Assembly (NCBI RefSeq): GCF_014396165.1
Contig: NZ_CP060715.1
Location: forward strand, 2,040,001 to 2,072,000
Length of the DNA: 32,000 nt
DNA from: Erysipelothrix inopinata
Lineage (GTDB): Bacteria; Bacillota_I; Bacilli_A; Erysipelotrichales; Erysipelotrichaceae
Direction of reading: 5' to 3'
Position 1 is the stretch's first letter. Each line of letters begins with the position of its first letter. The notes under the pieces are model-generated. The model worked only from the letters and a program-made list of their open reading frames with translations, was not told where the DNA came from and searched no databases. The translations under genes and the position numbers were made by a program. Shown in pieces: positions 8,923-32,000 of this stretch.

Positions 8923-9882
8923 TCATATTTTTTTAATTTCTATCATTTCATAGTCAATAGCAACAGATGTAGGATTATCAGTAAATAAATATTGATAGAG
9001 TTTCTTACCTACCGTTATTAAATTATAATCAATACTTGTGAAATTCATTAATGTGCTCATATACGTATTCCCTTCACTAATAATGAAGAAGTTTTGGTGA
9101 TGAACAAAACCTTTTTTCTTTGCCTCTACGATGAGGCTTGCACCTACTTCATCTGAATCCACAAAAATACCGACAATAGCATTATTATTTACTTGATCAT
9201 GAATTTTATTCATAACCCCACCTGTGTTTTTGTCGGAAAAAACTGCATGAAAAAACTGACTTTCTGCAGGTTTTTTAAGTGTTTCCTCATATGCCCGCCA
9301 TTTGGCTTGCGTACTTCGGCTCAGTTCAACGGATTTATTCGTTGTTGTGAAGATATCAGTACATCCATAATCCAATAAATGTTGGTAGATTTCATAATAC
9401 GAGGCAATTCTTCTTGGATACACATTGGTAGCACCCGTAACAACCTTCTCTCGACAGATAGTGATTGGACCATATTTAGAGTATTCTGTTAAGTAATGAT
9501 CCTCACATGCCTTCGAAATAAAGATAAGTCCATCCAACTCTTTCTTACGCAGCATTTCTAAGAAAACAAGTTCTCTTTCTATCTCATAGTTAGAACATAA
9601 CAACATCACATTGTAACCATCTTGATTGGCAGCATCAATAATACCCTTTGAGACGGTATCATAGCCATAATAATCTACTTCAGGAACAACAAGTCCCACA
9701 CACTGAGTTTTTCCTTTACTTAATTTAACGGCATTAGAGTTACTTACATAGTTATACTCATCCACAATTTCTAGAACACGACTTCGAACCGCATCAGAAA
9801 CATAGGGATGATTATTAAGAACTCGTGACACTGTTGATACAGATACATTCGCCTCTTTCGCAATATCTCGAATATTAACCAT
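8923..9882 (-). CDS. LacI-family transcriptional regulator
   Basis: N-terminus MVNIRDIAKEANVSVSTVSRVLNNHPYVSDAVRSRV is the LacI HTH signature, followed by a periplasmic-binding-protein-like sugar-binding fold. RBS AAGGAG lies upstream. Confidence 0.95.
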   Translation of the reverse strand: MVNIRDIAKEANVSVSTVSRVLNNHPYVSDAVRSRVLEIVDEYNYVSNSNAVKLSKGKTQCVGLVVPEVDYYGYDTVSKGIIDAANQDGYNVMLLCSNYEIERELVFLEMLRKKELDGLIFISKACEDHYLTEYSKYGPITICREKVVTGATNVYPRRIASYYEIYQHLLDYGCTDIFTTTNKSVELSRSTQAKWRAYEETLKKPAESQFFHAVFSDKNTGGVMNKIHDQVNNNAIVGIFVDSDEVGASLIVEAKKKGFVHHQNFFIISEGNTYMSTLMNFTSIDYNLITVGKKLYQYLFTDNPTSVAIDYEMIEIKKI

Positions 9883-16310: not shown

Positions 16311-19300
16311 TTACGATTTTTTAACTTTAATAAATAGAAATCCTAGGAGTATAAATCCAATTCCTATTATATATATTCCACTTGTACTCATTCCGGTCCC
16401 AGGTAATTTACCATTAGGGTATTCAGTTTCTGGAACTTTACCATTATCTCGGACTTTGAGATTGTTCATAGCACTCTTTAAATTTGAATACATCAAATCA
16501 ACCATCTCTTGCGTTGTTTCTTCATTTATATTTTTAATAAAGTCATGTGCTTCTTTTCGAGCGGTTTCAAAAGGAATCCAAGTCAATTCTGTATAATAAT
16601 CTTTATGTTTTAAATCAGATTCCTGAATAAGTTGAATTAAAGAATTCAAATCTATTTGATCAACTTCATTTTGTTTTATTGTAACAATCCGAGTATTACT
16701 TGCTTTAGAATAATTACCAGCCGTATCTTCCGCAACTACCCAGTATTGATAGTTATGTTCTGAGCTAAGATTGGAATCGAGATAATAGAGATTTTCCGTC
16801 GACGCAATTTCGACACCATCGCGATATACATGATATAGCTTGATACCCATATTATCCTCTGATTTGAGCCATTCAATTTGTACACTACTTTGCGATACAA
16901 TATCTACCTTATCTATAACTGGTGCTGTGGGGGCTAGTGTATCTTTGACAGTTGGGGTGAACCAGTTCCCAGATACAACAATCATACTTAACAATCTTAA
17001 ATTATTTCCAAAATATACTTCATCTTGAGTATCTGCAGAAGCATTTAAATCCCACAGGTCATTTAACCATGTCTGATGATCTGCGTGCATCATTGCGCTC
17101 ACCATGAATGGCGCCGTAAAGGTTAAATCTTGCCAATCACCTACAACTTCTCCATTTAATGTAAATCCCGATTTAATTTCGTTTACATCATCACTTGTTG
17201 ATTCTCTTAGCCATCTATTCAGAGTTTCCAGTTGACTATATGCACGTTTTTCTCCTGTAACTAAATAATCAGTTGCTAGTCTCCATGGAGTTCGAGCTGA
17301 GTTGTAGTAATAATTTCCATCATTTTCAGATTCTAAAAATTCCGAAGGCGCAGGAATATGTTTTCCCTCATCTAAAACAATAAAATCCGGTAACAGACCT
17401 GTATCTGTACTATATTCTTTATAAATAGTTTCAGATAGTTCGTAGGTATTATTAATCACGTTATCCCAACGCACATCTCCACTCACTATTCTAAAATCTT
17501 TAAGATGTTGCATCATCCAATCAGATGGACGTGTTGCTCCAAGATACTTATCACTATTTGCCCAATCAGCAAGATTAAGGGTCCACCTTTCATGGTCTAC
17601 TTCGCTTTCCATAATAGCATCAATAACTTTTCTAGCTTCCGTTAAGTAATTAATATTACCCAAGCTTCCCCACTGTTCATGGGCAAGTATTAGTGAATAA
17701 GCGATATCCATATCACCATCAATTGCTGAATCAGCGCCATTGATATCTACAATAACTCCATCAACTAACCCTTGTTGCCAAGCCATTAGATTAGAGTTTA
17801 TTTCTGATGGATGTGCCTTAAAATATCTAAACATCGCATCATAATCAGATTGAGTATGATTATATTGATTTGCCATCATCGCTAATATTATCATTCCATA
17901 ACCATGAGCTTCCGAAACCGTAATTTCATTGTCCTCATAGTCATCGGGATTTCCGTCAGAATACCAAACATACTTCTGATCAATATTATTTGGATCTACT
18001 TTTAAATACTTTTGCTTCCACTCAGTGAATAGTCTTTGTACTGTCTGATCCATTTCTTCCTGACTAATATGATTTGGTCTAATTGAATCCGATACGTAGC
18101 GAGTATGCTGAGGAAAACTTCGTCCAATATGTCCTTCAAGAGTCATAATGATAACTTTATCTGATTTTTGAGATTCGATGTCCTCATCGTTCACTGCTGA
18201 TACCTCGTAATTATAATTGGTTTTCTGAAGCAGTCCTGAATCTCTAAAGCTCGTAGAACGCGAAATTCCAATGAAAACATTATCTCTATATATTTTATAA
18301 TACTTAATGCCTGTATCACTAATACTAGATTCCCAAGAAATTTCAACTTCATACTGACTTATTGCTTTTCCTATAACATTTTTAGGTGTCGTAGGAGGTT
18401 CATTTCCCTCTTGCTGTGAATTAATAATAATACTTGATACCTGTCCATTCGTACGGATTCCAACCGGTACGACATTGAACGAGTACTTAATATTCGGATT
18501 TATTTTATCAATTTTCAAATGAATATTATCTTCATCAGTCTCAATATACTGAGACCAGTGAGTTCCCATTTTATCGTTACTTTCATACACTCTATATCCA
18601 CGAACCGGAGCACCTTTATCTGGTTTACTCCAACTTAGTTCCAGCTCATCATTATTCGCGGTATAAGTAAGGTTAGAGATTTGATTAGGAGCTTCGTCTG
18701 TTCTGACAATTCCATATTTATCATATTCAACCAAACCATCACCAACCGTATTTGCTTTCCCCTCGTCCTCAACGGCTGCTGTATAAGAAGTCATTGTTAG
18801 GATGTTTTCACTAATTCCCATATCTGTAAACATTTTTTTAAATGGTTGTTCATCGATAGCAGCAAAGAAATCGTCATAAGGAATTGGTTTTCCATCTTCT
18901 CCAATTATTTCGACTGCATCCCAATTTTCATCCAAATAGTGTTGGTTATTTTTTGTATAAAATTTATTCCCCAATGCATTTGGCATTAAATAGACAGTTC
19001 CCTTTGGATTAATATAATTACCGTCTGAATCTTTCTCAATACTTTCGAATGGAATTACTTCATTTCCGAGCATTTGAAAAGATCTCATGTACATATGGTC
19101 ATGTGCTTCAAAAACCATATCTATAGCCAGCTCATCAAATACAGGAATAAGATGCTTTCGATAGAATTGAACGCGTTCATCTTCCCATTGAGCCGAGTTA
19201 TCGCCTGCTGCATAAGGGGACTTATGGAATGTTACAAACTTCCATTTCTTTTCTGACTTAGCTACTGTATGCCGCATCCAGTCAACTTGTGCCCTAAACT

Positions 19301-20510
19301 CTGAATCTTCCCAAGCTATATATTCGCCATTTTCAGCAAGACCACCTTCAAATTGAGAGTTAAAAACCATGAAAAGAGCATCTCCATATTCGTATGAGTA
19401 AACGGAACCATCATGAGTTCCCTCTACTACATTTCTTTCCAAGTTAAAGTGGTTATAAAAATTATTATTTTCAGTAGTAACATCCCCATCATAATCGTTT
19501 ACCTCGTGTCCTCCTAAAACAGGAACAAAAGGAACATTTAGAAGCGAATCTTCTGCGACACTTAACATATATTGCCAATGTGATTCTAAATCACCATTAT
19601 CTACAAGATCTCCCGCAAGAATTAAAAACTTAGGGTCGTCAATATGATTTCGTGCTTTTCTAAAAGTATCTGCCCATGGTTTAAAGTTTTCAAGAGATGA
19701 AGCTTGGGAATCTGCTCCTACAATAAAATGAAAGCTTGAGTTTTCTTCTGTATCAGTGGTGAAAGAACCGATTTTTGACCATTCAAAACCATTTCCCAGA
19801 CGGAATCGGTATTGTGTTCCAGGCTTTAAATCTAGAGCATCAACTTTATGAGAATAAAAAACATGCTTATTATCAGTTTTTCGATCATTTTCGTCAAGAT
19901 ACGTCTCTACTCTATCACTAATCCCTTTGTAAACTTGATATGAATCAAGAGGAAACTTCTCATCAATAACTTGAGACGCTTCTACTATTTGAACGATTGA
20001 TTCAGTATTTGAGTCAGTATACCACGCAAATCCCATTGATGTTTTCGGAGATTTTGCAAAGGTCATATTCATGAGTTTAGGAATAAAAGGTGAAACCTGT
20101 GTTTCGAACGACCAGATTACATCCCGCACTAATTTTTGATTATCCGTTCCCTCCAATGACTCCTTATTAATTCTAACTGTATACTCTTCTCCAAAATTCA
20201 ATGTTTCGTGATTGATTTTAATTTTGTTATTTTCAATTTCAAAAGTTATATTTGGGATATGTCCTTTATTTCCGATCATCGTGATATTATCTGATACTAA
20301 TTTTATATCATAATTAAATGTTGCTTCTATCTTTGTATCTTCCGATACTTTTTTTGCACCATTAACTGGAAGAACATTAAGATCGCGGATAGGCTCAGAA
20401 ATTTCTGAGTCATTGATTCGTAATCCTTCTATTTTAACTTCTTTAATTCGATTTGAACCATAACCTCCAATGTCTCCCCGCTCGTACTTACTGCAGTGTG
20501 TTTCTTCCAT
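16311..20510 (-). CDS. Body of an LPXTG-anchored multi-domain surface enzyme with no signal peptide in this frame. Domain order: Ig-like domain, purple-acid-phosphatase N-domain, calcineurin-like metallophosphoesterase, 2x FN3, glycoside hydrolase family 8, FN3, FIVAR-like helical domain, LPGTG anchor
   Basis: - Metallophosphoesterase motifs: GADSQ, GDLVDNGD, GGHE, FHKSPY, AHDHMY (about 19071-19736).
- GH8: catalytic-acid context TVSEAHGYGM and the family signature ADSAIDGDMDIAYSLILAHEQW (domain about 16956-18116).
- Three FN3-like modules with W..S and Y.Y.V patterns.
- The FIVAR-like segment reads YYTELTWIPFETARKEAHDFI ... TQEMVDLMYSNLKSAMNNL.
- The sortase signal LPGTG is at 16392-16406, followed by a TM helix and a KVKKS tail. 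Confidence 0.85.
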   Translation of the reverse strand: MEETHCSKYERGDIGGYGSNRIKEVKIEGLRINDSEISEPIRDLNVLPVNGAKKVSEDTKIEATFNYDIKLVSDNITMIGNKGHIPNITFEIENNKIKINHETLNFGEEYTVRINKESLEGTDNQKLVRDVIWSFETQVSPFIPKLMNMTFAKSPKTSMGFAWYTDSNTESIVQIVEASQVIDEKFPLDSYQVYKGISDRVETYLDENDRKTDNKHVFYSHKVDALDLKPGTQYRFRLGNGFEWSKIGSFTTDTEENSSFHFIVGADSQASSLENFKPWADTFRKARNHIDDPKFLILAGDLVDNGDLESHWQYMLSVAEDSLLNVPFVPVLGGHEVNDYDGDVTTENNNFYNHFNLERNVVEGTHDGSVYSYEYGDALFMVFNSQFEGGLAENGEYIAWEDSEFRAQVDWMRHTVAKSEKKWKFVTFHKSPYAAGDNSAQWEDERVQFYRKHLIPVFDELAIDMVFEAHDHMYMRSFQMLGNEVIPFESIEKDSDGNYINPKGTVYLMPNALGNKFYTKNNQHYLDENWDAVEIIGEDGKPIPYDDFFAAIDEQPFKKMFTDMGISENILTMTSYTAAVEDEGKANTVGDGLVEYDKYGIVRTDEAPNQISNLTYTANNDELELSWSKPDKGAPVRGYRVYESNDKMGTHWSQYIETDEDNIHLKIDKINPNIKYSFNVVPVGIRTNGQVSSIIINSQQEGNEPPTTPKNVIGKAISQYEVEISWESSISDTGIKYYKIYRDNVFIGISRSTSFRDSGLLQKTNYNYEVSAVNDEDIESQKSDKVIIMTLEGHIGRSFPQHTRYVSDSIRPNHISQEEMDQTVQRLFTEWKQKYLKVDPNNIDQKYVWYSDGNPDDYEDNEITVSEAHGYGMIILAMMANQYNHTQSDYDAMFRYFKAHPSEINSNLMAWQQGLVDGVIVDINGADSAIDGDMDIAYSLILAHEQWGSLGNINYLTEARKVIDAIMESEVDHERWTLNLADWANSDKYLGATRPSDWMMQHLKDFRIVSGDVRWDNVINNTYELSETIYKEYSTDTGLLPDFIVLDEGKHIPAPSEFLESENDGNYYYNSARTPWRLATDYLVTGEKRAYSQLETLNRWLRESTSDDVNEIKSGFTLNGEVVGDWQDLTFTAPFMVSAMMHADHQTWLNDLWDLNASADTQDEVYFGNNLRLLSMIVVSGNWFTPTVKDTLAPTAPVIDKVDIVSQSSVQIEWLKSEDNMGIKLYHVYRDGVEIASTENLYYLDSNLSSEHNYQYWVVAEDTAGNYSKASNTRIVTIKQNEVDQIDLNSLIQLIQESDLKHKDYYTELTWIPFETARKEAHDFIKNINEETTQEMVDLMYSNLKSAMNNLKVRDNGKVPETEYPNGKLPGTGMSTSGIYIIGIGFILLGFLFIKVKKS

Positions 20511-21025
20511 CGAATATAGACTAATGATTCATTATCGAAAATTGATGGCAACTCTTTCTGGTTCAATCTTGATTCATTTGTATATTTTTCTTTGCTCATT
20601 ACTAACGTTTCATCATCAATATTTTCCCAATTTGTACCATCTAAACTTGCCTGAATTTTAAAATCTTTAGGTCCTGATCCTGAAGAAGTTTGACTCGAAG
20701 ATAGTTTCAAATTTTTATATCCAAGTGTTGGAACAATCATTAACCAGTATTGTTCTACTTCTTCATCAGCACTCCAACCCCAATAGCTTAGAGTTCCTTG
20801 AGAATCTACACCTTCCAAATAAGGACCTCCCTTCGCTTCAAACGTCGCGGAGCTTCGGTATTGTCCATTTTGTGCTCGATAGACACCATGCTTGCTCTCT
20901 TCTTTAAAAGTAAACTCGGCAATTAAATCTGATTTTGCCTCATCTGCATGTGCAATCGGAATGCTTGCAACGCTTAAAGCTACAATCAACAATAAAACTC
21001 TCAATTTTTTGAGAATGTATTTCAT
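20429..21025 (-). CDS. Signal-peptide-bearing N-terminal module of the same surface protein, in a different reading frame (frameshifted 5' segment)
   Basis: - MKYILKKLRVLLLIVALSVASIPIAHADE is a Sec signal peptide behind RBS AGGAGGG.
- It is followed by a roughly 150-aa beta-rich module (GPKDFKIQASLDGTNWENI).
- The ORF overlaps the 16311-20510 ORF by 82 nt in another frame.
- Its last 15 codons look like out-of-frame read-through. Confidence 0.7.
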   Translation of the reverse strand: MKYILKKLRVLLLIVALSVASIPIAHADEAKSDLIAEFTFKEESKHGVYRAQNGQYRSSATFEAKGGPYLEGVDSQGTLSYWGWSADEEVEQYWLMIVPTLGYKNLKLSSSQTSSGSGPKDFKIQASLDGTNWENIDDETLVMSKEKYTNESRLNQKELPSIFDNESLVYIRWKKHTAVSTSGETLEVMVQIELKKLK

Positions 21026-21107
21026 AATTCCCTCCTACGGACTGATAGCCCTTTCTTCACTAGCCTATCAAACCTTAACTCTTTCAACAATCTTCTCAAC
21101 CATCGTT

Positions 21108-21119
21108 TGAACTAGTACA
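21108..21119. promoter_or_regulatory. Operator-like site TGAACTAGTACA (11 of 12 match to the TGTACTAGTACA palindrome) upstream of the surface-enzyme gene
   Basis: Located 83 nt upstream of the ATG at 21025 and immediately downstream of the MocR-gene terminator. It shares ACTAGTACA with the perfect palindrome at 22533-22544. Confidence 0.45.
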
Positions 21120-21123
21120 AAAA

Positions 21124-21144
21124 AACATCACCTAAAGTGATGTT
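21124..21144 (-). terminator. Rho-independent terminator of the MocR-type regulator gene
   Basis: 8-bp stem AACATCAC / GTGATGTT with a 5-nt loop that includes the stop codon, followed on the minus strand by TTTTTTT. Confidence 0.7.
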
Positions 21145-22484
21145 AAATAAACCTCATTAATAATTTCATAGAGTAGTGTCAGCGCTTTAGAAACCTGTTT
21201 AATCTTAATTCGAGACATTGAGATACGTATCGAGTTGTCATAATCGTCTTTATTGTAAAATGCCATTCTATTAGAAGAAACAATAATCGAGTTTTTTTCA
21301 CATTCACGAATCAGTTGTTCAACATCGATTACTTTTGATAATCTAATTGTTGAGTAGTATCCACAGTCCCCACCTATATGTTCTGCTATTTTTGAGTCCC
21401 ATTTTCGTGTAACTTCACGAGCAATTTTAAGTTTTTGTGTTAAACTATCTGACACTGATTGAGCATTTGTGACTAAAATATCTGATCTTACTGCTGCCTC
21501 TAATGTCGCTTGCGATACTAAATCCGGCATATGATATGATAAAAAATAGTTTTCATCTGCTGCTTCGGAAAACGAATCCGTTAAATCATCTGGGACTACA
21601 ACATACCCAATTCTAATATATGGAAATAACTTAGAATATGATTTCATATAAATACAATTTTTAAAATCAGAAAAATAATATAGTGGCGAATATTTCGGAA
21701 TTGCATAAGAATCATTGAAGTAATCATCCTCAACAATATACACTTCATATTGATGTGCAAGTCGAACAATTTCTTTTCGTTGTGAATGACTCAGAGCAGT
21801 TCCTAATGGATTGTGATTTCGAGGGACAATATAGAAAAACTTTATAGATTCTTCTTTAAATATACGTTCTAACTCAACTAAGTCAATACCCTCTTCGTTG
21901 CGGTTAATTGTAACAACGTCTAATCCGAGTGAATGCATCATTTCATTACAAAATGTATATGTTGGAGATTCTAAAAGAACTCGTGTATTACCGTTTGGAA
22001 ATTCCATTCTTGATAATACAGATACGGTTTGTATTACGCCTTGAGTTAAGAAAAAATTCTCGGTTTTGCAGTAGATATCATAATTTTCAAGATGATCAAC
22101 CATCAGTTCATTTAAGGATGACATTCCACGAACATCTGATTCCAACGAATTATTTCTATATAAATCAACAGCAATATTTAAAACATGTTTTGCTTCGATA
22201 ATAGAAAAAGTATCAACGGTAGGATTCCCTGTTCCTAAATCCATTATATTTCCATTCTCTTCTTCATCCCTTAATAAATCGTCCGCAACGTAGAATCCGC
22301 TATTTGCTTTGGAGTACACTATATGTTCGTAGCGCAATATATCAAATGCTTTTATCACTGTTCCCTTACTACAATTATACTCTTTCGAAAGAAATCGTAT
22401 TGATTCAAATCGCTCTCCAGGTAAAATTTCTCCATTAAGTATCTTATTTTTTAAGTCGTGTGCTATTTTCTCATACTTTAACAT
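21132..22484 (-). CDS. MocR-subfamily GntR transcriptional regulator (N-terminal wHTH fused to a fold-type I aminotransferase-like PLP domain)
   Basis: - GntR HTH: KYEKIAHDLKNKILNGEILPGERFESIRFLSKEYNCSKGTVIKAFDILRYEHIVYSKANSGFYV.
- The aminotransferase-fold part retains the PLP-binding landmarks: NHNPLG, VEDDY, and SYSK with K285 (21630-21632), followed by IRIGYVV. Confidence 0.9.
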   Translation of the reverse strand: MLKYEKIAHDLKNKILNGEILPGERFESIRFLSKEYNCSKGTVIKAFDILRYEHIVYSKANSGFYVADDLLRDEEENGNIMDLGTGNPTVDTFSIIEAKHVLNIAVDLYRNNSLESDVRGMSSLNELMVDHLENYDIYCKTENFFLTQGVIQTVSVLSRMEFPNGNTRVLLESPTYTFCNEMMHSLGLDVVTINRNEEGIDLVELERIFKEESIKFFYIVPRNHNPLGTALSHSQRKEIVRLAHQYEVYIVEDDYFNDSYAIPKYSPLYYFSDFKNCIYMKSYSKLFPYIRIGYVVVPDDLTDSFSEAADENYFLSYHMPDLVSQATLEAAVRSDILVTNAQSVSDSLTQKLKIAREVTRKWDSKIAEHIGGDCGYYSTIRLSKVIDVEQLIRECEKNSIIVSSNRMAFYNKDDYDNSIRISMSRIKIKQVSKALTLLYEIINEVYLTSL

Positions 22485-22532
22485 AACTCACCTCTTTTTA
22501 CAGTTTAACATATTGTAGACCATTTCATAGCG

Positions 22533-22544
22533 TGTACTAGTACA
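22533..22544. promoter_or_regulatory. Perfect 12-bp palindrome TGTACTAGTACA in the divergent MocR / PTS IIC intergenic region (candidate operator)
   Basis: All 6 positions are self-complementary. The site lies 49 nt upstream of the regulator ATG and overlaps the -35 position of a minus-strand TACAAT box (22512-22517). It is 92 nt upstream of the IIC ATG. Confidence 0.55.
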
Positions 22545-22635
22545 AACGCTTGTTGATGCAATTGCTTGTAAGTTGCTTTCACGTTAACTTATAGGTGTAA
22601 GGGCTAACAGCTCATTAGAGGAGGAGAAATATTAC

Positions 22636-23961
22636 ATGACAAATCTCATGGAGAAATTTGCATCATGGCTTGAAGAACACTTCTTGCCTATAGCAAGTGC
22701 AATTGGTAACCAGAGACATTTAGTAGCATTACGTGATGGTTTTATTGCAACAATGCCAGTAAGTATGTCTGGTGCATTAGTTGTTATGTTTAAAGAAGTA
22801 ATTTTTACTTCTGAATCGTTATTCGGAACTATGCTTAACAAACTAAGCTTTTATGCCGAAAATATTCAACCCGTGCTTGACCGAACACTTGTACCGGTAT
22901 TGGAGCAAATGTGGTGGGGAACACTTGCTCTTGGTATTATATTTAGTGTGTTTACGATTGCTTATAAACTTGCTGAGCATTATAAACAAGATGCACTATC
23001 TGCTGGTGTTCTCGCAGTGGTATCTTATTTAATACTATTACCACAAGCAGTCGAAGGCGGAGAATGGGGTACAATTTCTTGGACATCATTCAACTCGGAA
23101 GCTATATTTACCGGATTAATTGTTGCCATGATTTCTACAGAAATCTTTAACTGGGTAGTAAACAAGGGCTGGACGATAAAAATGCCAGACAAAGTACCAC
23201 CAGCAGTATCAAAAGCATTCTCTGCTATGATTCCAGCATTCTTTGTATTAACCTTCTTTGGTATCGTTTCAGTATGTTTCCAAGAAGGTCTTGGAATACC
23301 AATGCAACAGTTCATCAATAATGCTATTCAGGTTCCACTAACAAAATTAGGTCAGTCACCATTTACATTTATATTGCTAGTATTTATTGCCCAAATATTA
23401 TGGTTCTTTGGTCTTCATGGAATCACAATTATCGGTCCTGTTTTAGACACAATGTATTCACCAGCTCTTGCAGCAAATGCAGAAGCTATTATGATTAAAG
23501 GAGTCGCTCCTACAAATGCAATCACACGTAACATGTTAGACTTATATGGTATGCATGGCGGCAGTGGTGCAACACTAGCTCTGATTATTGCTATATTCTT
23601 AGTATCAAAAAGAACCGAATACAAATCATTGGCTAAGATGTCTTTAATGCCAGGGGTTTTCCAAATTAATGAACCAATTATTTATGGATTGCCAATTGTA
23701 TTAAATCCAATTTTAGCAATTCCATTTATTATTATTCCACCAATAACAGTATTTATTGGTTGGTTATTTACTGCTGTAATACCGTTTGCCGGTTTCGTTT
23801 ACATTGATCCACCTTGGGTCGTTCCACCTGTACTTAATGCATTCCTTGCAACAGGAGGAGATATAAAAGCTGCAATTCTAGCATTCGCCACTTTAGTTAT
23901 AGCAATACTAATTTACATGCCATTTATTATGATTGCTAACAAAATGGAAGATTCTATCTAA
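22636..23961 (+). CDS. PTS sugar transporter subunit IIC, lactose/cellobiose/chitobiose (Lac) family
   Basis: 441-aa polytopic protein. The N-terminus LPIASAIGNQRHLVALRDGFIATMP and the later FFGLHG and NEPIIYGLPIVLNP are hallmark motifs of CelB/LicC/ChbC-type IIC. RBS GAGGAGGAG lies upstream. Confidence 0.93.
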   Translation: MTNLMEKFASWLEEHFLPIASAIGNQRHLVALRDGFIATMPVSMSGALVVMFKEVIFTSESLFGTMLNKLSFYAENIQPVLDRTLVPVLEQMWWGTLALGIIFSVFTIAYKLAEHYKQDALSAGVLAVVSYLILLPQAVEGGEWGTISWTSFNSEAIFTGLIVAMISTEIFNWVVNKGWTIKMPDKVPPAVSKAFSAMIPAFFVLTFFGIVSVCFQEGLGIPMQQFINNAIQVPLTKLGQSPFTFILLVFIAQILWFFGLHGITIIGPVLDTMYSPALAANAEAIMIKGVAPTNAITRNMLDLYGMHGGSGATLALIIAIFLVSKRTEYKSLAKMSLMPGVFQINEPIIYGLPIVLNPILAIPFIIIPPITVFIGWLFTAVIPFAGFVYIDPPWVVPPVLNAFLATGGDIKAAILAFATLVIAILIYMPFIMIANKMEDSI

Positions 23962-23963
23962 TG

Positions 23964-23993
23964 AAAACCCATCTCGAATGAGATGGGTTTTTT
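23964..23993. terminator. Bidirectional rho-independent terminator between PTS IIC (+) and the GH4 gene (-)
   Basis: Perfect 12-bp stem AAAACCCATCTC / GAGATGGGTTTT with loop GAAT. The T-run lies on the + strand and the A-tract gives a T-run on the - strand. Confidence 0.85.
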
Positions 23994-24009
23994 GTAATAA
24001 TAGCGATTA

Positions 24010-25326
24010 TTAGTTATGAAACTGTGGTAAGAAATCTTTATGTGCTTCCATCAATTCTGATACTACTCGATTTGCCAATGCATCACTGGGGCATAATGGA
24101 TTCGAACTCAATGCAGTAACAGCTAAATCATAATCACCTGTAACCGCAGCTTCACAAACCATTCTTTCAAATGATTTGATTGTTTGAATTGTACCATTAA
24201 TCTTGGGATTTAATTCCCCAACTGCAATCGGTTTTGGACCATCTGAAGTGATGACACACGCTACCTCAATTGCACTATCAAGTGGCAAGTTAGTGATTGC
24301 CCCATTGTTACGTACATTTACATATTGAATGTCACAGGAATTATTATGAATTGAATGAATCAAACTACAGGCTGCATCAGAGTAATGTGCCCCGCCACGT
24401 TGTTCTAGTTGTTTTGGTTTAACTTTAAGAGATTGATCTTTATAAAGTTCAAAAAGTTCATCTTCAAGTTTTTTTACAACTTCCCCTCTTACTGTGCCTG
24501 TTTTAAACTCTTCGAGTTGAGTATTGAGTTGTTCTTCAGTGAAGTAATAGTAGTTATGGTAAGGACAAGGTATCGCACCAAGACCTCTTAAAAATTCTGG
24601 CGAATAAGAGAGTGCTTCAAAGTTTTTCATAGCCAGCGCTTTTTCACTCTCTTCAGTATATTTATCAATCACTTTATCTAGAATAGATGCCCCTTTATGA
24701 TAGACATCAGTAACGAATACATGATGGTTTACACCACTAAGCTCCATTGAAATTTCCTCAGGATCTAATTCTAACATATCTGCGAAAGTGTGTTTCATAT
24801 CAAAAGGAACGTTACATAAACCAATGACCTTTTTAAAATTTGTATACCTCAAGACTGCTTCCGTAACCATACCTGCAGGATTCGTAAAATTAATCAACCA
24901 TGCATCAGGACAAAGCTCCTCCATGTCTTTAACAATTTCCAAAATGACAGGAATAGTTCTAAATGCTTTGAACATTCCCCCCGCCCCATTTGTTTCTTGA
25001 CCAATCATACCATGTGATATTGGAATTCTCTCATCTAGTATTCTTGCTTGAAGCTGCCCCACTCGCATTTGCGTTGTTACATAGTCTGCATCTTTTAAAG
25101 CTTCTTTTCGGTCATAGCTTAAGTGAATTGTCATATTTACACCAGCTTCTTCAACCATCCGCTTTGCTAACGCTCCTACAATCTCTAATTTTTCCCTACC
25201 CTCTTCTATATCAACCAGCCACAATTCACTAATTGGTAACTCTCTATGTCTTAAAATGAATCCCTCAACCAATTCTGGAGTATATGAACTACCTCCACCA
25301 ATAGTAACTACTTTAATTTTTTTCAT
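24010..25326 (-). CDS. GH4 6-phospho-beta-glucosidase (LicH/CelF/ChbF-like, NAD+/Mn2+-dependent)
   Basis: It is near-colinear with LicH-type enzymes (KVVTIGGGSSYTPELVEGFI, GQETNGAGG, NFTNPAGMVTEA, GLCNVP, GVNHHVF, RGGAHYSDAA). The start is set at MKKIKVV (25326) behind GGAGGAAAAACA, immediately after the ROK stop codon. Confidence 0.95.
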   Translation of the reverse strand: MKKIKVVTIGGGSSYTPELVEGFILRHRELPISELWLVDIEEGREKLEIVGALAKRMVEEAGVNMTIHLSYDRKEALKDADYVTTQMRVGQLQARILDERIPISHGMIGQETNGAGGMFKAFRTIPVILEIVKDMEELCPDAWLINFTNPAGMVTEAVLRYTNFKKVIGLCNVPFDMKHTFADMLELDPEEISMELSGVNHHVFVTDVYHKGASILDKVIDKYTEESEKALAMKNFEALSYSPEFLRGLGAIPCPYHNYYYFTEEQLNTQLEEFKTGTVRGEVVKKLEDELFELYKDQSLKVKPKQLEQRGGAHYSDAACSLIHSIHNNSCDIQYVNVRNNGAITNLPLDSAIEVACVITSDGPKPIAVGELNPKINGTIQTIKSFERMVCEAAVTGDYDLAVTALSSNPLCPSDALANRVVSELMEAHKDFLPQFHN

Positions 25327-26213
25327 TGTTTTTCCTCCGTTTTCATACAATAATAGGCTGCACCAATCTTGCCAGCATCATTATGATGTTTACAAACATC
25401 AATATTCCATATTTTATAATATGGGGTCATTTTCTGAAGTGCACTTTTAACATCTTGAATTAGTTTAGATGATGCACTGACACCACCACCCAATAAAATT
25501 GTATCGGGATCTATTGAAAACGCGATGTTGTAAATTCCTGTACTGAGACAACGTATCCATTCATCGTATATTTGGAGCAATGGTTCGTTTTCTGAGCTTA
25601 ATAGTTCAAATACATTCCTCCCTGAAAATTCGCCATCGGAAATACCAAATAATTTAGATACTTTATTCACCAATGCCTCAGTTGCACTATTCTCGCTCAT
25701 AATTTCATAGTCAGTATAATTACTAAATTCTTTTGTTATCATATATCCAAACTCGCCTGCCATAAAATTACTCCCATGATATAATTGGTTGTTGATGATT
25801 ATTCCTCCACCAATTCCACTTCCAATTGTGATACAAACTAAATTGCTACTTCCTACACCATTACCCGTCCAGTGTTCAGCTAAGGTGGCACAGTTCGCAT
25901 CATTTTCGAGAACAGTACGGATTCCAGTACGTTGTTCAATGATTTCTCCTAGATATTTATTTGATAGAGTTGGAATTGCTCCTCCCTCTATAATTATTCC
26001 AGAATCAGTATTTACAGCTCCCGGAATACTTAATCCTATTCCGTCTAAATCTGAATATTTGGATACTATTGTATCAATAATGTCTAGTATTTCTTCAAAG
26101 TTATCTCGAACACTTTTAATCGGTCTCGGGTCGTGAACGAGTGAATTTCCAAGTTCATCATACAGCCCATGTTTGATTTCAGTTCCACCGATATCAATTC
26201 CTAAATATCTCAT
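25323..26213 (-). CDS. ROK-family sugar kinase (no N-terminal HTH, so a kinase rather than a repressor)
   Basis: The protein begins directly with the ATP-binding motif MRYLGIDIGGTEIK, and has ROK glycine-rich motifs (LENDANCATLAE, GSGIGGGIII) and GEFGY. It is 296 aa. Confidence 0.9.
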   Translation of the reverse strand: MRYLGIDIGGTEIKHGLYDELGNSLVHDPRPIKSVRDNFEEILDIIDTIVSKYSDLDGIGLSIPGAVNTDSGIIIEGGAIPTLSNKYLGEIIEQRTGIRTVLENDANCATLAEHWTGNGVGSSNLVCITIGSGIGGGIIINNQLYHGSNFMAGEFGYMITKEFSNYTDYEIMSENSATEALVNKVSKLFGISDGEFSGRNVFELLSSENEPLLQIYDEWIRCLSTGIYNIAFSIDPDTILLGGGVSASSKLIQDVKSALQKMTPYYKIWNIDVCKHHNDAGKIGAAYYCMKTEEKQ

Positions 26214-26282
26214 TATTCTATCACCTTTCCACTTTTATGATACATCCTCAAATCTGTCTCTACAACAGAACCAAATCATCAA

Positions 26283-26294
26283 TGTACCAGTACA
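26283..26294. promoter_or_regulatory. Operator-like site TGTACCAGTACA (TGTAC-NN-GTACA) upstream of the ROK-GH4 operon
   Basis: Both 5-bp arms are identical to the palindrome at 22533-22544. It lies 70 nt upstream of the ROK ATG, upstream of a TTGTAG-17-TATCAT promoter candidate on the minus strand. Confidence 0.5.
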
Positions 26295-26314: not shown

Positions 26315-26348
26315 AAAAGAACAAGTCTAAATGTCAACTTGTTCTTTT
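26315..26348 (-). terminator. Terminator after the YolD-like gene
   Basis: Perfect 12-bp AT-rich stem AAAAGAACAAGT / ACTTGTTCTTTT with a 10-nt loop. The minus-strand RNA ends in a U-run. Confidence 0.65.
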
Positions 26349-26369: not shown

Positions 26370-26747
26370 TTAATCTACTTTCACGATTGCAATATTTCGA
26401 ATACTCTCCCAAGCAATTTCAGTTTCTCCAAGATACAAGTATTCATCATCAGCAATACCTTCAAATTTTCCGACAATACTTTCCAAAAGATTTTGGTTAT
26501 CATCTCTTATATTTAACTGTATTGAGATGGTTTTTGATTTCAAAAATGCATATTGTAGTACTTCATCAATTTCTAAACGACTCATAATCGGTAATTCTTT
26601 AACTTGATTTAAAGCTTCATCTTGTCCTTCTGTAATCACTTTAGTTAATTCCGCCAGTGAAAAAGCAGTTCCCCATTTTAGTCCAAAAGGACGATCGTGA
26701 TAATCATTGTAATCAACGAATACTTTTTTTGTTCTTTTTCGTTCCAT
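26370..26747 (-). CDS. YolD-like protein (accessory partner of Y-family polymerases)
   Basis: It is a small protein directly downstream of a UvrX/YqjW-type polymerase. The central segment DRPFGLKWGTAFSLAEL resembles the YolD-family W..F motif. The start is chosen at MERKRTKK (26747) behind GTGAGGAAG. The ORF is open to 26801, so the start is uncertain. Confidence 0.65.
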   Translation of the reverse strand: MERKRTKKVFVDYNDYHDRPFGLKWGTAFSLAELTKVITEGQDEALNQVKELPIMSRLEIDEVLQYAFLKSKTISIQLNIRDDNQNLLESIVGKFEGIADDEYLYLGETEIAWESIRNIAIVKVD

Positions 26748-28101
26748 GATTTGCTTCCTCACTTCCGATTCCTTCCAAACCACCCGCATGTCCTCCGACA
26801 AGAGAGCTTCGAGCTATTGCACGACCCCCATCCGTAAGACTGCTAGCATAAACCATTGTTTTAAAACCATACTTATTTCTCACAAGATCAACTGCTGCAT
26901 CGAGTTTTTTTTCTTTGTCTTTCAATTCAACAGGTTCAAACAAATTAATCTGTTCTTGGCGACAATGATCTAATTTTGTACAATTCACTGCTATATTTCT
27001 CACAATTTGGATATCATAATACTTATCAAAAATAGACAGCAATGTTTCCGCAATGCGATGACTATTATTGGTTGCTTCGATATTCACTTGTTTATGAAAT
27101 CCTGTTTTACCCTCATCGTCAACATAACTTAGAGAGTAACCTACCCATAGACTAACACATCGTGTTTGAACATTTTCTTTCCGTAAACGTGTGGCGACTT
27201 GATCAGCCATCTCACGAATTACCACTTCGATTTGTTTTTTATCATAATAATCACGATTCAAGACTTGTGAGTTCCCAATTGTTTTAGACTTAGGAGTGTA
27301 GTGCTCACCAAGAAATGTACGATCTATTCCCCATGCATGTGCATAAAGTTGTGTACCCAGAATACCCATTTCTTTTTTTAGCATATAGTAATCTGCTTGC
27401 GCTAAATCATATACAGAATGTATACCCAATTTTTCCAATCTCTTTGCTGTTCTTTTTCCAATACCCCAAATATCAGTTATTTCCTTCACAGGCCACAATT
27501 TAGTACAAACATCTTCATATCGCCACTCAGCTTTCATATCTTTATTATGCTTAGCTTCAATGTCCAGAGCTAATTTTGCTAATAGTGGGTTATCACCAAT
27601 ACCGACAGTCGTATAGATCCCTGTTTCCTCATATACAGTGATTTGAATCAACTTTGCAAGTTCATATGGGGTACTACAATTAAAATAAGACAACGAATCC
27701 GTTACATCTAAAAATGTTTCATCAACCGAATATGTCGCAACATTTTCATCATCAACAAATCTTCGATATATATTATTAATTTGTTTATGAATTTTCATAT
27801 AAAGGTGCATTCGTGGCGGTGCAATAAAAAGATCATCCGGATAGGGAAATGGTAAATCTCGAGCTCTACTTACGTTGCTAATATTGTATGCTTTCTTCGC
27901 TTCAGGGCTTGAAGCAAGAATGAGACCACTTCCTCGTTCTTCAGGACTATCACTTGGATAACTCATAACGACCAACTTTGCCTTCAAAGGATTTAAATTT
28001 AAGGCTACTGCTTCGCATGAAGCATAGAAACTCTTACAATCAATGCACAAGATATCTCGTGAGGGCTCTTTTTGATAATCAAACTCAAGTCTTTCTTCCA
28101 T
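26713..28101 (-). CDS. Y-family (translesion) DNA polymerase, UvrX/YqjW/ImpB-like
   Basis: ILCIDCKSFYASCEAV (catalytic Asp in IDCKSFY), YSVDETFLDVT (DE catalytic pair), a helix-hairpin-helix ITDIWGIGKRTAKRLEKLGI and a little-finger domain. RBS AAGGAGGTGG lies upstream. Confidence 0.9.
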   Translation of the reverse strand: MEERLEFDYQKEPSRDILCIDCKSFYASCEAVALNLNPLKAKLVVMSYPSDSPEERGSGLILASSPEAKKAYNISNVSRARDLPFPYPDDLFIAPPRMHLYMKIHKQINNIYRRFVDDENVATYSVDETFLDVTDSLSYFNCSTPYELAKLIQITVYEETGIYTTVGIGDNPLLAKLALDIEAKHNKDMKAEWRYEDVCTKLWPVKEITDIWGIGKRTAKRLEKLGIHSVYDLAQADYYMLKKEMGILGTQLYAHAWGIDRTFLGEHYTPKSKTIGNSQVLNRDYYDKKQIEVVIREMADQVATRLRKENVQTRCVSLWVGYSLSYVDDEGKTGFHKQVNIEATNNSHRIAETLLSIFDKYYDIQIVRNIAVNCTKLDHCRQEQINLFEPVELKDKEKKLDAAVDLVRNKYGFKTMVYASSLTDGGRAIARSSLVGGHAGGLEGIGSEEANHGTKKNKKSIR

Positions 28102-28239: not shown

Positions 28240-31200
28240 CTATGCTTCCTCTTCTTCTTTCTTACGGCTTTTTGATCTTAATTTCAAGCCTCCTATGATT
28301 GAAGCGAGTCCTGCAAGTACCAAGGTCCCATCACTTGCCACTCCAGTACCTGGAAGTGTTGGTTTTGGTTTCTCTGGATTTGGTTTTTCTGGATCAACTG
28401 TTTCTTTCACTGTATTGGTAATTGTAAATCCATCAATTGCGGATTCATAATTCGCTACAGCTTCTTCGTCGACTGTATAGATGATTTTCGCTCCAGCTTT
28501 AAACTCTGGTAATGATTTGAATGTATAGTTCCATGTATCATTTCCCTTAGTCCATTCTGGTTTCACATCTACCTTCTCGCCATTCGCATAAAGATTTACG
28601 GTAATGCTTTCTGGTCGTTTGTTCTCTTTATTCGAATTATCGTCCCATATTTTTTGACCTTCAAGATCAATAAGGGATACTTCGTGTGTATTTACGAGAT
28701 TCAATCCATTTACTACTGAGCTATAGCCTGCCACAGCTTCTTCTGTAATGGTGTATACAAGTTTCTCTCCATTTTCATATTCTGGAAGTTCTCCAAATGT
28801 ATAACTCCATGTGTTTTCTGCTTTGGTCCATTGTGCTTTCACATCTTGAGCTTCTCCATTTTTGAAGAGTGTCACTGTGATTGCTTCTGGACGAAGTCCA
28901 TCTTGATTGGATTCATCAACCCATTCTTTTTGTCCTTTTATTTCAACTACAGATGGTTTGTGAGTGTTGGTAATACTGTATCCTTCGATTCCCTTAACAT
29001 AACCAGCTACTTCTGTTTCATCTACTGTATATGTTATTTTTTCTCCAGCTTTAAATTCTGGTTGGTTTTCAAAGACATAATGCCATACATCACCTTCTGT
29101 TTGAGTCCAAACTGGTTTCACATCCACTTTTTCGCCATTTGCATAAAGTGCTACTTCCACAGCTTCTGGGCGGATACCATCTTGGTTCTTATGATCATCC
29201 CATGTCTTCGTTCCTTCAATATTGATTAATGAAACTTCATGAGTATTCACAAGATTGTAATCTGTTATTTTTGCGGTATAACCATCAACACCAAGCTCTT
29301 CAATCACGTAATTAATGATTTCTTTATTTGCATACTTAGGTAGGTTCGCAAATTTGTAACTCCATGTATTACCATTCTTAATCCATTCTGGTTTTACTTC
29401 GAGTTTCTTACCATTCGCAATTAACTTAACGACAATATTTTCTGGTCGGATACCATCTTGGTTATCATTATCATTCCATACTTTCGTTCCGGTAATTGTT
29501 CTAACTTCAGTTGCTCGGGAGTTTGTGATATTGAGGCCTTCAATCTTAGTTGTATAGCCTACAACGTCATCTTCTTTAACTGTATATTCAATCAGTTCGC
29601 CACCTTTATACTCAGGTTGATCTGCGAATACATAGTTCCAAACATCTTCATCTGTTTGACTCCAAACTGCATCGGTATCTACTTTTTCACCATTTGCGTA
29701 AAGTGTTACTACAATTGTCTCTGGTCGTTTTCCGTCTTGATCCGAGGAATCCTTCCATGTTTTTGTTCCTTCGACATTAATCTTACTTGGTGTATGACTG
29801 TTTGTGATATTGAGTCCTTGAATATCTGTTGTATAGTGCTCGACAGCTTCTTCAGTTACGGTATATTCAATATCCACACCATTTTCTTTTACATCAAGAT
29901 TCGCAAATTCATAGGTCCAAGTATTTTCTGCTTTGGTCCATGTTGGTTCTGCATTTACTTTTTCACCATTAGCGTAAAGGGTAATCTTGATTTCTTCAGG
30001 TCTGAATCCTGCGATATTACTTGCATCATCCCATGTCTTAACGCCGGTTACCACTTTCGTATCAGCTTTATGAGTATTTGTGATATCTAAGCCTGTAATC
30101 TTAGGTGTATACCCTGGCACTGTATCTTCAGTCACAGTATAGGTAATCAATTGGCCACCTTTGTATTCAGGTTGTCCTGCAAAGGTATAGATCCATGAGT
30201 GTTCACCTTTAACCCATGTTGGTTCTGCCGTTACTTCTTCGCCATTTGCATGGAGTGTAATTTTGATTTCTTCAGGTCGAATACCATCTTGGTTCTTATT
30301 ATCGTCCCATGTCTTCGTACCTGTCACATCAATCTTACTTGGTGTATGACTGTTTGTGATATTGAGTCCTTGAATATCTGTTGTATAGTGCTCGACAGCT
30401 TCTTCAGTTACGGTATATTCAATATCGACACCATTTTCTTTCACTTCAAGATTCGCAAATTCATAGGTCCAAGTATTTTCAGCTTTGGTCCATGTTGGTT
30501 CTGCGTTTACTTTTTCACCATTAGCGTAAAGGGTAATCTCAATTTCTGCTGGTCTGAATCCTGCGATATTACTTGCATCATCCCATGTCTTAATGCCGGT
30601 TACCACTTTCGTATCAGCTTTATGACTGTTTGTGATATCTAAGCCTGTAATCTTAGGTGTGTATCCTGGTACTGTATCTTCAGTCACTGTATAAGTGATC
30701 AATTGGCCACCTTTGAATTCAGGTTGTCCTGCAAAGGTATAGCTCCATGAGTGTTCACCTTTAACCCATGTAGGTTCTGCCGTTACTTCTTCGCCATTTG
30801 CATAGAGTGTAATTTTGATTTCTTCAGGTCGGATACCATCTTGGTTCTTATTATCGTCCCATGTCTTCGTACCTATCACATCAATCTTACTTGGTGTGTG
30901 ACTGTTTGTAATATTGAGTCCTTGAATATCTGTAGTGTAGTGCTCGACAGCTTCTTCAGTTACGGTATATTCAATATCGACACCATTTTCTTTCACTTCA
31001 AGATTCGCAAATTCATAGGTCCAAGTATTTTCAGCTTTGGTCCATGAAGGTTCTGCGTTTACTTTTTCACCATTAGCGTAAAGGGTAATCTCAATTTCTT
31101 CGGGTCTGAATCCTGCGATATTGCTTGCATCATCCCATGTCTTAACCCCTGTTACGGATCGTGTATCAGCCTTATGACTGTTTGTGATATCTAAACCTGT

Positions 31201-32000
31201 AATCTCAGGTGTATACCCTGGTACTGTATCTTCAGTCACAGTATAGGTAATCAATTGACCACCTTTGTATTCAGGTTGATTTGCAAAGGTATAGCTCCAT
31301 GAGTGTTCACCTTTAATCCATGTAGGTTCTGCCGTTACTTCTTCGCCATTTGCATAGAGTGTAATTTTGATTTCTTCAGGTCGGATGCCATCTTGGTTCT
31401 TATTATCGTCCCATGTCTTCGTACCTGTCACATCAATCTTACTTGGTGTATGACTGTTTGTAATGTTGAGTCCTTGAATATCTGTTGTGTAGTGTTCGAC
31501 AGCTTCTTCAGTTACGGTATATTCAATATCCACACCATTTTCTTTTTCAGGTAAATTTTCAAATGTATAGGTCCAAGTATTTTCTGCCTTGGTCCATGTT
31601 GGTTTAAGATTAAGCTCTGCACCATTGGCATGAAGTTTAACTGTAATCTCTTCGGGTCTGAATCCTGCGATATTGCTTGCATCATCCCATGTCTTAACCC
31701 CTGTTACGGATCGTGTATCAGCTTTATGACTGTTTGTGATATCTAAGCCTGTAATCTTAGGTGTATAGCCTGGCACTGTATCTTCAGTCACAGTATAGGT
31801 AATCAATTGACCACCTTTGTATTCAGGTTGTCCTGCAAAGGTATAGCTCCATGAGTGTTCACCTTTAACCCATGTTGGTTCTGCCGTTACTTTTTCACCA
31901 TTTGCATAGAGTGTAATTTTGATTTCTTCAGGTCGGATGCCATCTTGGTTCTTATTATCGTCCCATGTCTTCGTTCCTGTCACATCAATCTTACTTGGTG
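28240..32000 (-). CDS. Very large LPXTG-anchored surface protein made of CnaB-type (collagen-adhesin B-repeat) domains. Only the C-terminal part, more than 1250 aa, is in the window
   Basis: - Thirteen consecutive 92-aa modules follow the pattern GTKTWDD.N.DG.RP..I.V.LYANGE ... W.Y.F..LP ... YTVTE..V.GY ... ITN.
- The modules are followed by a PEKPNPEKPKP linker.
- The anchor is LPGTG (28342-28356), a TM helix and a charged tail.
- The frame stays open to the window edge. The M at 31983 in the ORF track is a GTG inside the repeat (..PSKIDVTGTKTW). Confidence 0.92.
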   Translation of the reverse strand, partial: PSKIDVTGTKTWDDNKNQDGIRPEEIKITLYANGEKVTAEPTWVKGEHSWSYTFAGQPEYKGGQLITYTVTEDTVPGYTPKITGLDITNSHKADTRSVTGVKTWDDASNIAGFRPEEITVKLHANGAELNLKPTWTKAENTWTYTFENLPEKENGVDIEYTVTEEAVEHYTTDIQGLNITNSHTPSKIDVTGTKTWDDNKNQDGIRPEEIKITLYANGEEVTAEPTWIKGEHSWSYTFANQPEYKGGQLITYTVTEDTVPGYTPEITGLDITNSHKADTRSVTGVKTWDDASNIAGFRPEEIEITLYANGEKVNAEPSWTKAENTWTYEFANLEVKENGVDIEYTVTEEAVEHYTTDIQGLNITNSHTPSKIDVIGTKTWDDNKNQDGIRPEEIKITLYANGEEVTAEPTWVKGEHSWSYTFAGQPEFKGGQLITYTVTEDTVPGYTPKITGLDITNSHKADTKVVTGIKTWDDASNIAGFRPAEIEITLYANGEKVNAEPTWTKAENTWTYEFANLEVKENGVDIEYTVTEEAVEHYTTDIQGLNITNSHTPSKIDVTGTKTWDDNKNQDGIRPEEIKITLHANGEEVTAEPTWVKGEHSWIYTFAGQPEYKGGQLITYTVTEDTVPGYTPKITGLDITNTHKADTKVVTGVKTWDDASNIAGFRPEEIKITLYANGEKVNAEPTWTKAENTWTYEFANLDVKENGVDIEYTVTEEAVEHYTTDIQGLNITNSHTPSKINVEGTKTWKDSSDQDGKRPETIVVTLYANGEKVDTDAVWSQTDEDVWNYVFADQPEYKGGELIEYTVKEDDVVGYTTKIEGLNITNSRATEVRTITGTKVWNDNDNQDGIRPENIVVKLIANGKKLEVKPEWIKNGNTWSYKFANLPKYANKEIINYVIEELGVDGYTAKITDYNLVNTHEVSLINIEGTKTWDDHKNQDGIRPEAVEVALYANGEKVDVKPVWTQTEGDVWHYVFENQPEFKAGEKITYTVDETEVAGYVKGIEGYSITNTHKPSVVEIKGQKEWVDESNQDGLRPEAITVTLFKNGEAQDVKAQWTKAENTWSYTFGELPEYENGEKLVYTITEEAVAGYSSVVNGLNLVNTHEVSLIDLEGQKIWDDNSNKENKRPESITVNLYANGEKVDVKPEWTKGNDTWNYTFKSLPEFKAGAKIIYTVDEEAVANYESAIDGFTITNTVKETVDPEKPNPEKPKPTLPGTGVASDGTLVLAGLASIIGGLKLRSKSRKKEEEEA
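29776..32000. repeat. Tandem DNA repeat, 552-bp unit (two alternating CnaB module types, A and B), at least 4 copies and continuing beyond the window
   Basis: Protein modules A1-B1 to A4-B4 are nearly identical. Spurious plus-strand ORFs recur at 30199, 30751 and 31303, which is exactly 552-nt spacing. Long identical nucleotide strings recur, for example ggtcgaataccatcttggttcttattatcgtcccatgtcttcgtacc. Confidence 0.9.

Follow-up and report, generated by a model that had tools for sequence, protein, structure and literature searches.

A compact palindrome as the probable operator of a MocR-type regulator beside beta-glucoside utilisation genes of Erysipelothrix inopinata

The characterised MocR regulators sense pyridoxal 5′-phosphate (PLP), gamma-aminobutyric acid (GABA), taurine, ectoine derivatives or rhizopine. 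The regulator considered here, encoded by a gene termed mocR, is a protein of this type from Erysipelothrix inopinata. It lies in a stretch of 32,000 nucleotides (nt) of contig NZ_CP060715.1 (assembly GCF_014396165.1, positions 2,040,001 to 2,072,000 of the forward strand), referred to below as the window. Around mocR are the genes for the IIC permease of a phosphotransferase system (PTS), a ROK sugar kinase, a 6-phospho-beta-glucosidase of glycoside hydrolase family 4 (GH4) and a multidomain GH8 surface enzyme (Table 1). A palindrome of 12 nt is found before each of these transcription units. It is probably the operator of the MocR protein (we would put the probability at about 0.7), which would activate the IIC gene, the ROK–GH4 operon and the GH8 gene while repressing mocR itself.

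GabR recognises ATACCA direct repeats located ~34 bp apart, and has a linker of ~29 residues. Acting through two sites with bendable DNA between them, it shuts down its own gene and switches on the divergent operon (PMC6522883). PdxR also represses itself and activates the divergent pdxST, from three motifs of which two are direct and one is inverted (PMC10450172). Suvorova and Rodionov (2016) reconstructed 761 MocR regulons, in 20% of which the operator comprises two inverted boxes; most of the motifs contain TGT or TGG, and the boxes are one or several helical turns apart (PMC5320631). One of their orthologous groups, 'Ycd' (BSU03560 = YcxD), has COG697 transporters as targets in the Bacillales and Clostridium botulinum, and also lists a COG1486/CelF (GH4) target for Cbei_4035 of C. 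beijerinckii (PMC5320631). YcxD itself is uncharacterised (PMC6522883). In the literature searched, no paper ties a MocR protein to 6-phospho-beta-glucosidases, and none gives the site sequences described below in a relevant context. Operons combining a cellobiose or chitobiose PTS with GH4 are controlled by LicR/CelR, which are PRD regulators, and by ChbR/NagC, with catabolite control on top. The gene set of the window is of the same kind, whereas the family of its regulator and the principle of sensing are wholly different; the locus encodes neither a PRD regulator nor one of the AraC type.

The MocR protein of the window is built from two domains connected by a linker of ~11 residues. Residues 3–66 form a GntR winged helix-turn-helix (wHTH) domain (PF00392, E = 2.1e-9, over the gathering score), and residues 79–435 form a fold-type I aminotransferase-like domain (PF00155, E = 2.6e-23) that aligns with the structures of GabR and PdxR. 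All of 23 homologues keep Lys285, in the sequence YMKSYSK, and the alignment places it on the FSK Schiff-base lysine of both GabR and PdxR. As the PLP lysine is retained, a PLP-dependent response to an effector is likely. The best NCBIfam match is to PdxR (Bacillus clausii and other Gram-positives; 7PQ9, 7ZLA), aligned over its full length with 201.7 bits, short of the 320 bits set as the cut-off for PdxR. PdxR controls the synthesis of vitamin B6, whereas the targets in the window are genes of sugar catabolism. GabR has the same combination of a wHTH and an aspartate aminotransferase-like PLP domain, with its gene divergent from the target operon. It differs in having two separate sites and a long linker, where the window has a single compact palindrome with abutting half-sites, and nothing in a beta-glucoside pathway corresponds in an obvious way to its effector GABA. 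At the level of sequence the logic of GabR and PdxR is present, with the operator placed over the −35/spacer of mocR and 5′ of the −35 of the target. The operator comprises two inverted boxes with the conserved TGT (TGTAC and GTACA), as in the published MocR class, so that its grammar is not new (PMC5320631). The YczR/YczE group of MocR proteins (PMC4944035) was rejected as the identity of the regulator; its motifs differ.

An earlier note on this DNA, made from the sequence alone, had marked three intergenic copies of the palindrome before start codons, a minus-strand TACAAT box that would place one of them in the promoter of mocR, and a degenerate copy inside the IIC gene. A search of the whole window with the pattern TGTACNNGTACA, allowing at most one mismatch, returns exactly three matches, starting at 21108, 22533 and 26283, and these are the copies that had been marked. 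The distances to the ATG codons are 91 nt for O1 (IIC), 69–70 nt for O2 (ROK) and 82–83 nt for O3 (GH8 gene). Intergenic DNA makes up 6.1% of the window, and all three fall within it (p ~2e-4); it is this placement rather than the bare count that lifts them above chance within the window. The TACAAT box is also present as described. The degenerate copy exists too (22890–22901, 12 nt with two mismatches), but matches with up to two mismatches are at the chance level (14 observed, 12.6 expected), so that this copy is probably noise and was rejected as an operator. A weight matrix trained on 43 foreign sites only, with no site of the window included, gives its three highest scores in the window to O1, O2 and O3 (14.3, 10.5 and 9.9 bits), the fourth being 3.8 bits. 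The extended consensus of the operator is aaC-TGTAC-YR-GTACA-Gtt. A reading of the palindrome as a hairpin or terminator was ruled out, since a 5-bp stem with a 2-nt loop does not give a stable hairpin.

It is the related loci, not the count in the window, that make the case for an operator. The closest, L001, comes from an Erysipelothrix metagenome-assembled genome and encodes a MocR protein 85% identical to that of the window. The MocR protein of Erysipelothrix sp. HDW6C (L005) is 56% identical and that of L006 52%, and a scan of metagenomes with an alignment of 23 homologues added 80 further loci at 30–49% identity. All three sites are kept in L001, where O3 carries the identical mismatch. 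Upstream of the ROK gene the window and L001 are 76% identical overall, and the palindrome forms a conserved island, TTTGTACnnGTACATT, in which the central dinucleotide is changed. O1 is kept in L001, L005 and L006 though its flanks diverge. In the last two loci mocR is divergent from a single IIC–ROK–GH4 operon, with a perfect TGTACTGGTACA in an otherwise diverged intergenic region.

The wider set follows the same pattern. In 73 non-redundant loci, with homologues at 30–85% protein identity, a palindrome with at most one mismatch is present within 150 bp 5′ of mocR in 44. The division by identity is 22 of 43 loci at 37% or above, against a background of 0.0085 per 150 bp elsewhere in the loci, and 22 of 30 at 30–37%, against 0.0026; some of the loci counted as being without the palindrome are explained by the symmetric variants TATACCGGTATA and TGTATCGATACA. 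GH4 adjoins mocR in 34 loci (from the 80 metagenomic loci with L001, L005 and L006; tblastn), often together with IIC and/or ROK, and by our count ~30 of the 34 have a site ahead of mocR, GH4, IIC or ROK. The palindrome is also found away from the mocR promoter, 5′ of GH4 in L008, L009, L011–13, L047 and L048, and 5′ of IIC in L015, L023 and L031. In the relatives at 30–37% identity mocR is divergent from EamA transporters, and in most of these loci the palindrome starts 23–44 nt, typically ~35 nt, before the mocR ATG. The loci come from human gut and other metagenomes, and present two sets of targets, GH4/PTS and EamA transporters. The site tracks both mocR and the target genes, as a cognate operator should when the factor that binds it is autoregulated. 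The earlier note had taken the palindrome for the MocR operator and had proposed footprinting of orthologous loci and a test for promoter bias; the related loci bear out this assignment in both respects.

This clade may control more than GH4/PTS genes. A palindrome-bearing mocR homologue in L041 (4304–5776) is divergent from a GH1 enzyme, not GH4, and another in L022 (3880–5832) is divergent from a family-5 solute-binding protein.

When the sites are oriented towards their targets a common layout emerges, (aaC)TGTAC-YR-GTACA(Gtt), N8, TT, N7, (A)TTG, 17 nt, TAnnnT. The 83 non-redundant sites have 166 flanks, and in 54 of these TTG begins exactly 17 nt past the palindrome; the commonest of the other offsets has 17, and ~3 would be expected from base composition. 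TAnnnT after a spacer of 16–18 nt is also present at 51 of the 83 sites. O1, O2 and O3 all fit this layout, with the centre of the site at approximately −59 of the predicted IIC, ROK–GH4 and GH8 promoters. The −35 and −10 elements of the ROK–GH4 promoter are kept in L001 as TTGTCG and TATCAT. The predicted GH8 promoter is weak, as expected if it depends upon an activator, and the promoters of the window are all weak enough to escape a scan with the promoter consensus. The arrangement on the mocR side is looser. In L001 the mocR −10 is TATAAT, 14 nt from its palindrome, and across the loci −10-like boxes are located 4–15 nt from the palindrome with no fixed phasing. No second or third repeated box of the kind found with GabR and PdxR is seen in the site profile, which contains only the TT and the −35/−10 elements besides the palindrome. 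The TT itself, 8–9 nt past the palindrome on the promoter side, is present at 45 and 42 of 54 diverged sites, and at all three sites of the window (22553–22554, and on the minus strand 21099–21098 and 26274–26273). It could be a contact for the C-terminal domain of the RNA polymerase alpha subunit, a bend or an extra contact of the regulator.

A centre at approximately −59 is outside the core promoter, the register is strict and the target promoters are weak, and from these features we infer that MocR would act there as an activator. With its effector present, the bound protein would most likely stimulate weak sigma-A promoters, probably by contacting RNA polymerase. Activation, to which the position of the sites points, had not been proposed in the earlier note. 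The same protein would most likely repress mocR, since O1 covers the −35/spacer of the divergent promoter. This position, together with the short distance from palindrome to ATG in the EamA-linked relatives, fits autorepression by occlusion, and is consistent with the autoregulation that the earlier note had suggested.

The same MocR protein might instead bind the palindrome solely as a repressor of every promoter, to be relieved by an inducer in the manner of EnuR or PtsJ. HutC-type GntR regulators, which have similar compact palindromes, are usually repressors overlapping promoters; O1 does overlap the mocR promoter, and L002 and L003 have the site TGTACCGGTTCA and encode a protein of HutC type whose wHTH is related. 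Pure repressors also exist within the MocR family, namely EnuR (PMC8739950) and, going by a title cited in PMC6522883, PtsJ. Yet repressors seldom need strict phasing or a site that leaves the −35 and −10 free, and here the palindrome stands exactly 17 nt from the TTG at 54 of the 83 sites, in very diverged loci, upstream of target promoters that in the window are weak. Repression alone is therefore an unlikely account of these sites, although it is the alternative that survives best.

It is a good deal less probable that a regulator encoded elsewhere binds the palindrome, for example a HutC-type GntR protein with a similar wHTH, and that the link to mocR is indirect. The reason for considering it comes from Staphylococcus intermedius and S. 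pseudintermedius (L002, 7987–8276, and L003, 9911–10705), each with a HutC/UTRA GntR regulator whose wHTH is 42% identical to that of MocR and has the same LKYEKIAHD start. The near-identical site noted above is located ~80 nt 5′ of the start of the regulator in both, and in L003 the regulator is divergent from a GH1 6-phospho-beta-glucosidase gene (bglA). The HutC-type regulators share with the window protein the compact GT..AC palindrome, a related recognition helix (SK-x-T-[VI]-IKA) and the link to a 6-phospho-beta-glucosidase gene, but their sensor is UTRA where that of MocR is the aminotransferase-like PLP domain; the same DNA-binding module and operator appear to be present on a different sensor domain. 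Against a foreign regulator stands the site directly 5′ of mocR homologues in 44 of the 73 loci, from many sources and with two target sets, which is the signature expected of an autoregulated cognate factor. Within the window the other DNA-binding proteins are of LacI type (8923–9882) and XRE type (7219–8181), both more than 11 kb from the locus, and MocR is the only transcription factor near it, as the earlier note had stated. The ROK protein was rejected as the regulator, being without a helix-turn-helix in Pfam and NCBIfam.

A further reading, in which the three copies arose by chance or are palindromes without a regulatory role, for instance of a restriction type such as GTAC/CTAG, is effectively refuted. 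Three matches also arise in some shuffled sequences, but all three copies are intergenic, they form conserved islands in diverged intergenic DNA, and dozens of unrelated loci have them at homologous positions, at a fixed spacing from promoter elements.

Several observations weigh against the assignment of the palindrome as an activating MocR operator. The bare count is only weakly above chance: the window, shuffled by dinucleotides, holds 0.76 matches on average, and three are reached in 6 of 100 shuffles. The best matrix score of mononucleotide shuffles has a median of 8.6 bits and a 95th percentile of 14.9 bits; flank penalties hold the sites of the window near these values, so that the matrix score alone is not decisive. 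O3 has its mismatch where 50 of 54 sites have an A. Approximately 4 of the 34 GH4-linked loci are without a recognisable site. A scan with the promoter consensus lists none of the proposed promoters, neither those of the targets nor the mocR −10, so that the −35 and −10 elements of the targets are assigned from conservation between loci only. For the IIC gene there is an alternative promoter, TTGTAA (22569–74) with TTATAG (22592–97), which would leave 21 nt between the site and its −35. The half-sites are 2 bp apart, or 7 bp from centre to centre, not helical turns apart as in the published class (PMC5320631), and the combination of abutting half-sites with a linker of ~11 residues leaves the geometry of binding unexplained by comparison with GabR and PdxR. 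The GH8 enzyme seems to be the weakest member of the regulon, with a one-mismatch site, a gene that, like the site before it, is carried by only two closely related genomes, and a frameshift in that gene here.

The products of the three transcription units could form a single pathway. The GH8 enzyme, anchored to the cell wall, would free oligosaccharides. The cellobiose-family PTS IIC would import and phosphorylate a beta-linked disaccharide, GH4 would cut the resulting 6-phospho-beta-glucoside, and the ROK kinase would phosphorylate the freed hexose. The effector is presumably PLP together with a metabolite tied to the beta-glucoside substrate. A cre-like (catabolite-responsive element) box is located past the −10 element both of the IIC promoter and of the GH8 promoter, and would add catabolite repression of the CcpA type. 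The cre consensus is TGWAANCGNTNWCA; the box at IIC, TGTAAGGGCTAACA, matches it at 13 of 14 positions and that at GH8, AGAAAGGGCTATCA, at 12 of 14, and both are without the central C of the CG. L005 and L006 have the same box at IIC, L010 has a close variant of it, TGTAAGGGGTACCA, and clearer boxes of the type TGTAAGCG occur in L023 and L031. With moderate confidence the boxes may be read as probable CcpA sites.

The gene calls were checked against Pfam and NCBIfam, and the coordinates are collected in Table 1. The GH4 protein matches the solved 6-phospho-beta-glucosidases 1s6y and 5c3m with 608–611 bits. The best NCBIfam match of the ROK protein is the BglK kinase, under the cut-off. The ROK and GH4 genes overlap, and form one operon (24010..26213, minus strand). 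The surface enzyme comprises Big_5, purple-acid-phosphatase N, metallophosphoesterase, FN3 and GH8 domains, and bears a signal peptide and an LPGTG cell-wall anchor. Its gene changes frame near 20468–20474, beside a GGGG run, while the open reading frame (ORF) in L001 is intact, with 1573 aa (tblastn); the frame change is either a pseudogene, a phase variant or a sequencing error. The degree of identity to L001 varies in a mosaic fashion over 21132–26213 and the GH8 gene (IIC 99%, GH4 92%, MocR 85%, GH8 enzyme 73–76%, ROK 72%), which suggests recombination within the locus.

Table 1. Coordinates of genes, candidate operators and predicted promoter elements of the mocR locus, numbered from the first letter of the window
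Feature	Position	Strand	Description
mocR	21132-22484	-	GntR wHTH and aminotransferase-like domain (Pfam)
PTS lactose/cellobiose-family IIC permease	22636-23961	+	PF02378; TIGR00410, 362 bits, over cut-off
GH4 6-phospho-beta-glucosidase	24010-25350	-	Pfam; structure-sequence match
ROK sugar kinase	25323-26213	-	Pfam; gene overlaps GH4 gene
GH8/metallophosphoesterase multidomain surface enzyme	16311-21025	-	Pfam
Intrinsic terminator of mocR	21124..21144	-	O3 directly after
Candidate operator O1	22533..22544		TGTACTAGTACA, perfect palindrome; intergenic between divergent mocR and PTS IIC
Candidate operator O2	26283..26294		TGTACCAGTACA; 5′ of ROK–GH4 operon
Candidate operator O3	21108..21119		TGAACTAGTACA, one mismatch; just past mocR terminator, 5′ of GH8 surface-enzyme gene
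Predicted IIC promoter	22562..22590	+	−35 TTGCTT 22562-22567, 17-nt spacer, −10 TAACTT 22585-22590
Predicted ROK–GH4 promoter	26237..26265	-	−35 TTGTAG 26265-26260, 17-nt spacer, −10 TATCAT 26242-26237
Predicted GH8-gene promoter	21062..21090	-	−35 TTGTTG 21090-21085, 17-nt spacer, −10 TAGGCT 21067-21062
Predicted mocR −10 TACAAT	22512..22517	-	with a 17-nt spacer its −35 position is inside O1
cre-like box	22596..22609	+	TGTAAGGGCTAACA; 5 nt past predicted IIC −10
cre-like box	21043..21056	-	AGAAAGGGCTATCA; 5 nt past predicted GH8 −10, same geometry as at IIC

Upstream of the ROK–GH4 operon the minus strand carries a small ORF without a Pfam match (26370–26801), conserved in L001 and overlapping the 3′ end of the gene of a Y-family (DinB/IMS) polymerase (26713–28101, minus strand). 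A terminator-like hairpin at 26317–26346 is located between the small ORF and O2. Downstream of the locus, 28240–31983 on the minus strand encodes an adhesin-like LPXTG surface protein of 1247 aa with 13 Cna-B repeats, and there is no palindrome close by.

The earlier note had called the regulon undescribed, which holds in part. The regulator clade and one GH4 target have already been catalogued in silico in the Ycd group (PMC5320631), and the regulon is not wholly undescribed. Both the Ycd/YcxD group and the window regulator are MocR-type proteins of Firmicutes, and one member of the group is predicted to control GH4. The COG697/EamA context of that group matches the relatives at 30–37% identity, whereas the window and most relatives at 37% or above have GH4/IIC/ROK instead, and solely from the shared gene context of the 30–37% relatives do we infer a tie of the window protein to YcxD (BSU03560). 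The Ycd group has one GH4 target in one genome; here the link to GH4/IIC/ROK extends over ~34 loci, with a third unit, GH8, in addition. What is new is the breadth of this link, a three-promoter regulon that includes the surface GH8 enzyme, and the fixed position at −59. The GH8 unit, which the earlier note had placed in the regulon, has a site that fits the 17-nt layout, but the single mismatch and its occurrence in only two closely related genomes leave its membership the least secure.

A broader proposal may be put forward tentatively, at somewhat short of even odds. A whole branch of PLP-dependent MocR regulators, represented in Erysipelothrix and in metagenomes of the human gut and other sources, would switch on PTS-dependent beta-glucoside catabolism (IIC, ROK and GH4 or GH1), together with the surface GH8/phosphoesterase in this organism. 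They would act as class-I-like activators at −59 from a compact HutC-like palindrome, with a geometry unlike that of GabR and PdxR (linker of ~11 residues), in response to a sugar-derived, possibly amine-bearing effector that reacts with PLP. Such a regulator would be the first MocR to sense a carbohydrate.

If true, such a branch for the catabolism of beta-glucosides would widen the known sensing range of PLP-dependent regulators, and would offer a first functional lead on the YcxD-like group, which is uncharacterised. The strict layout of palindrome, 17 nt and −35, combined with the short linker, would offer a simple system in which to ask how the head-to-tail dimer of a MocR protein recognises a compact palindrome and makes contact with RNA polymerase. 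The motif would permit the annotation of such regulons in gut and other metagenomic Firmicutes.

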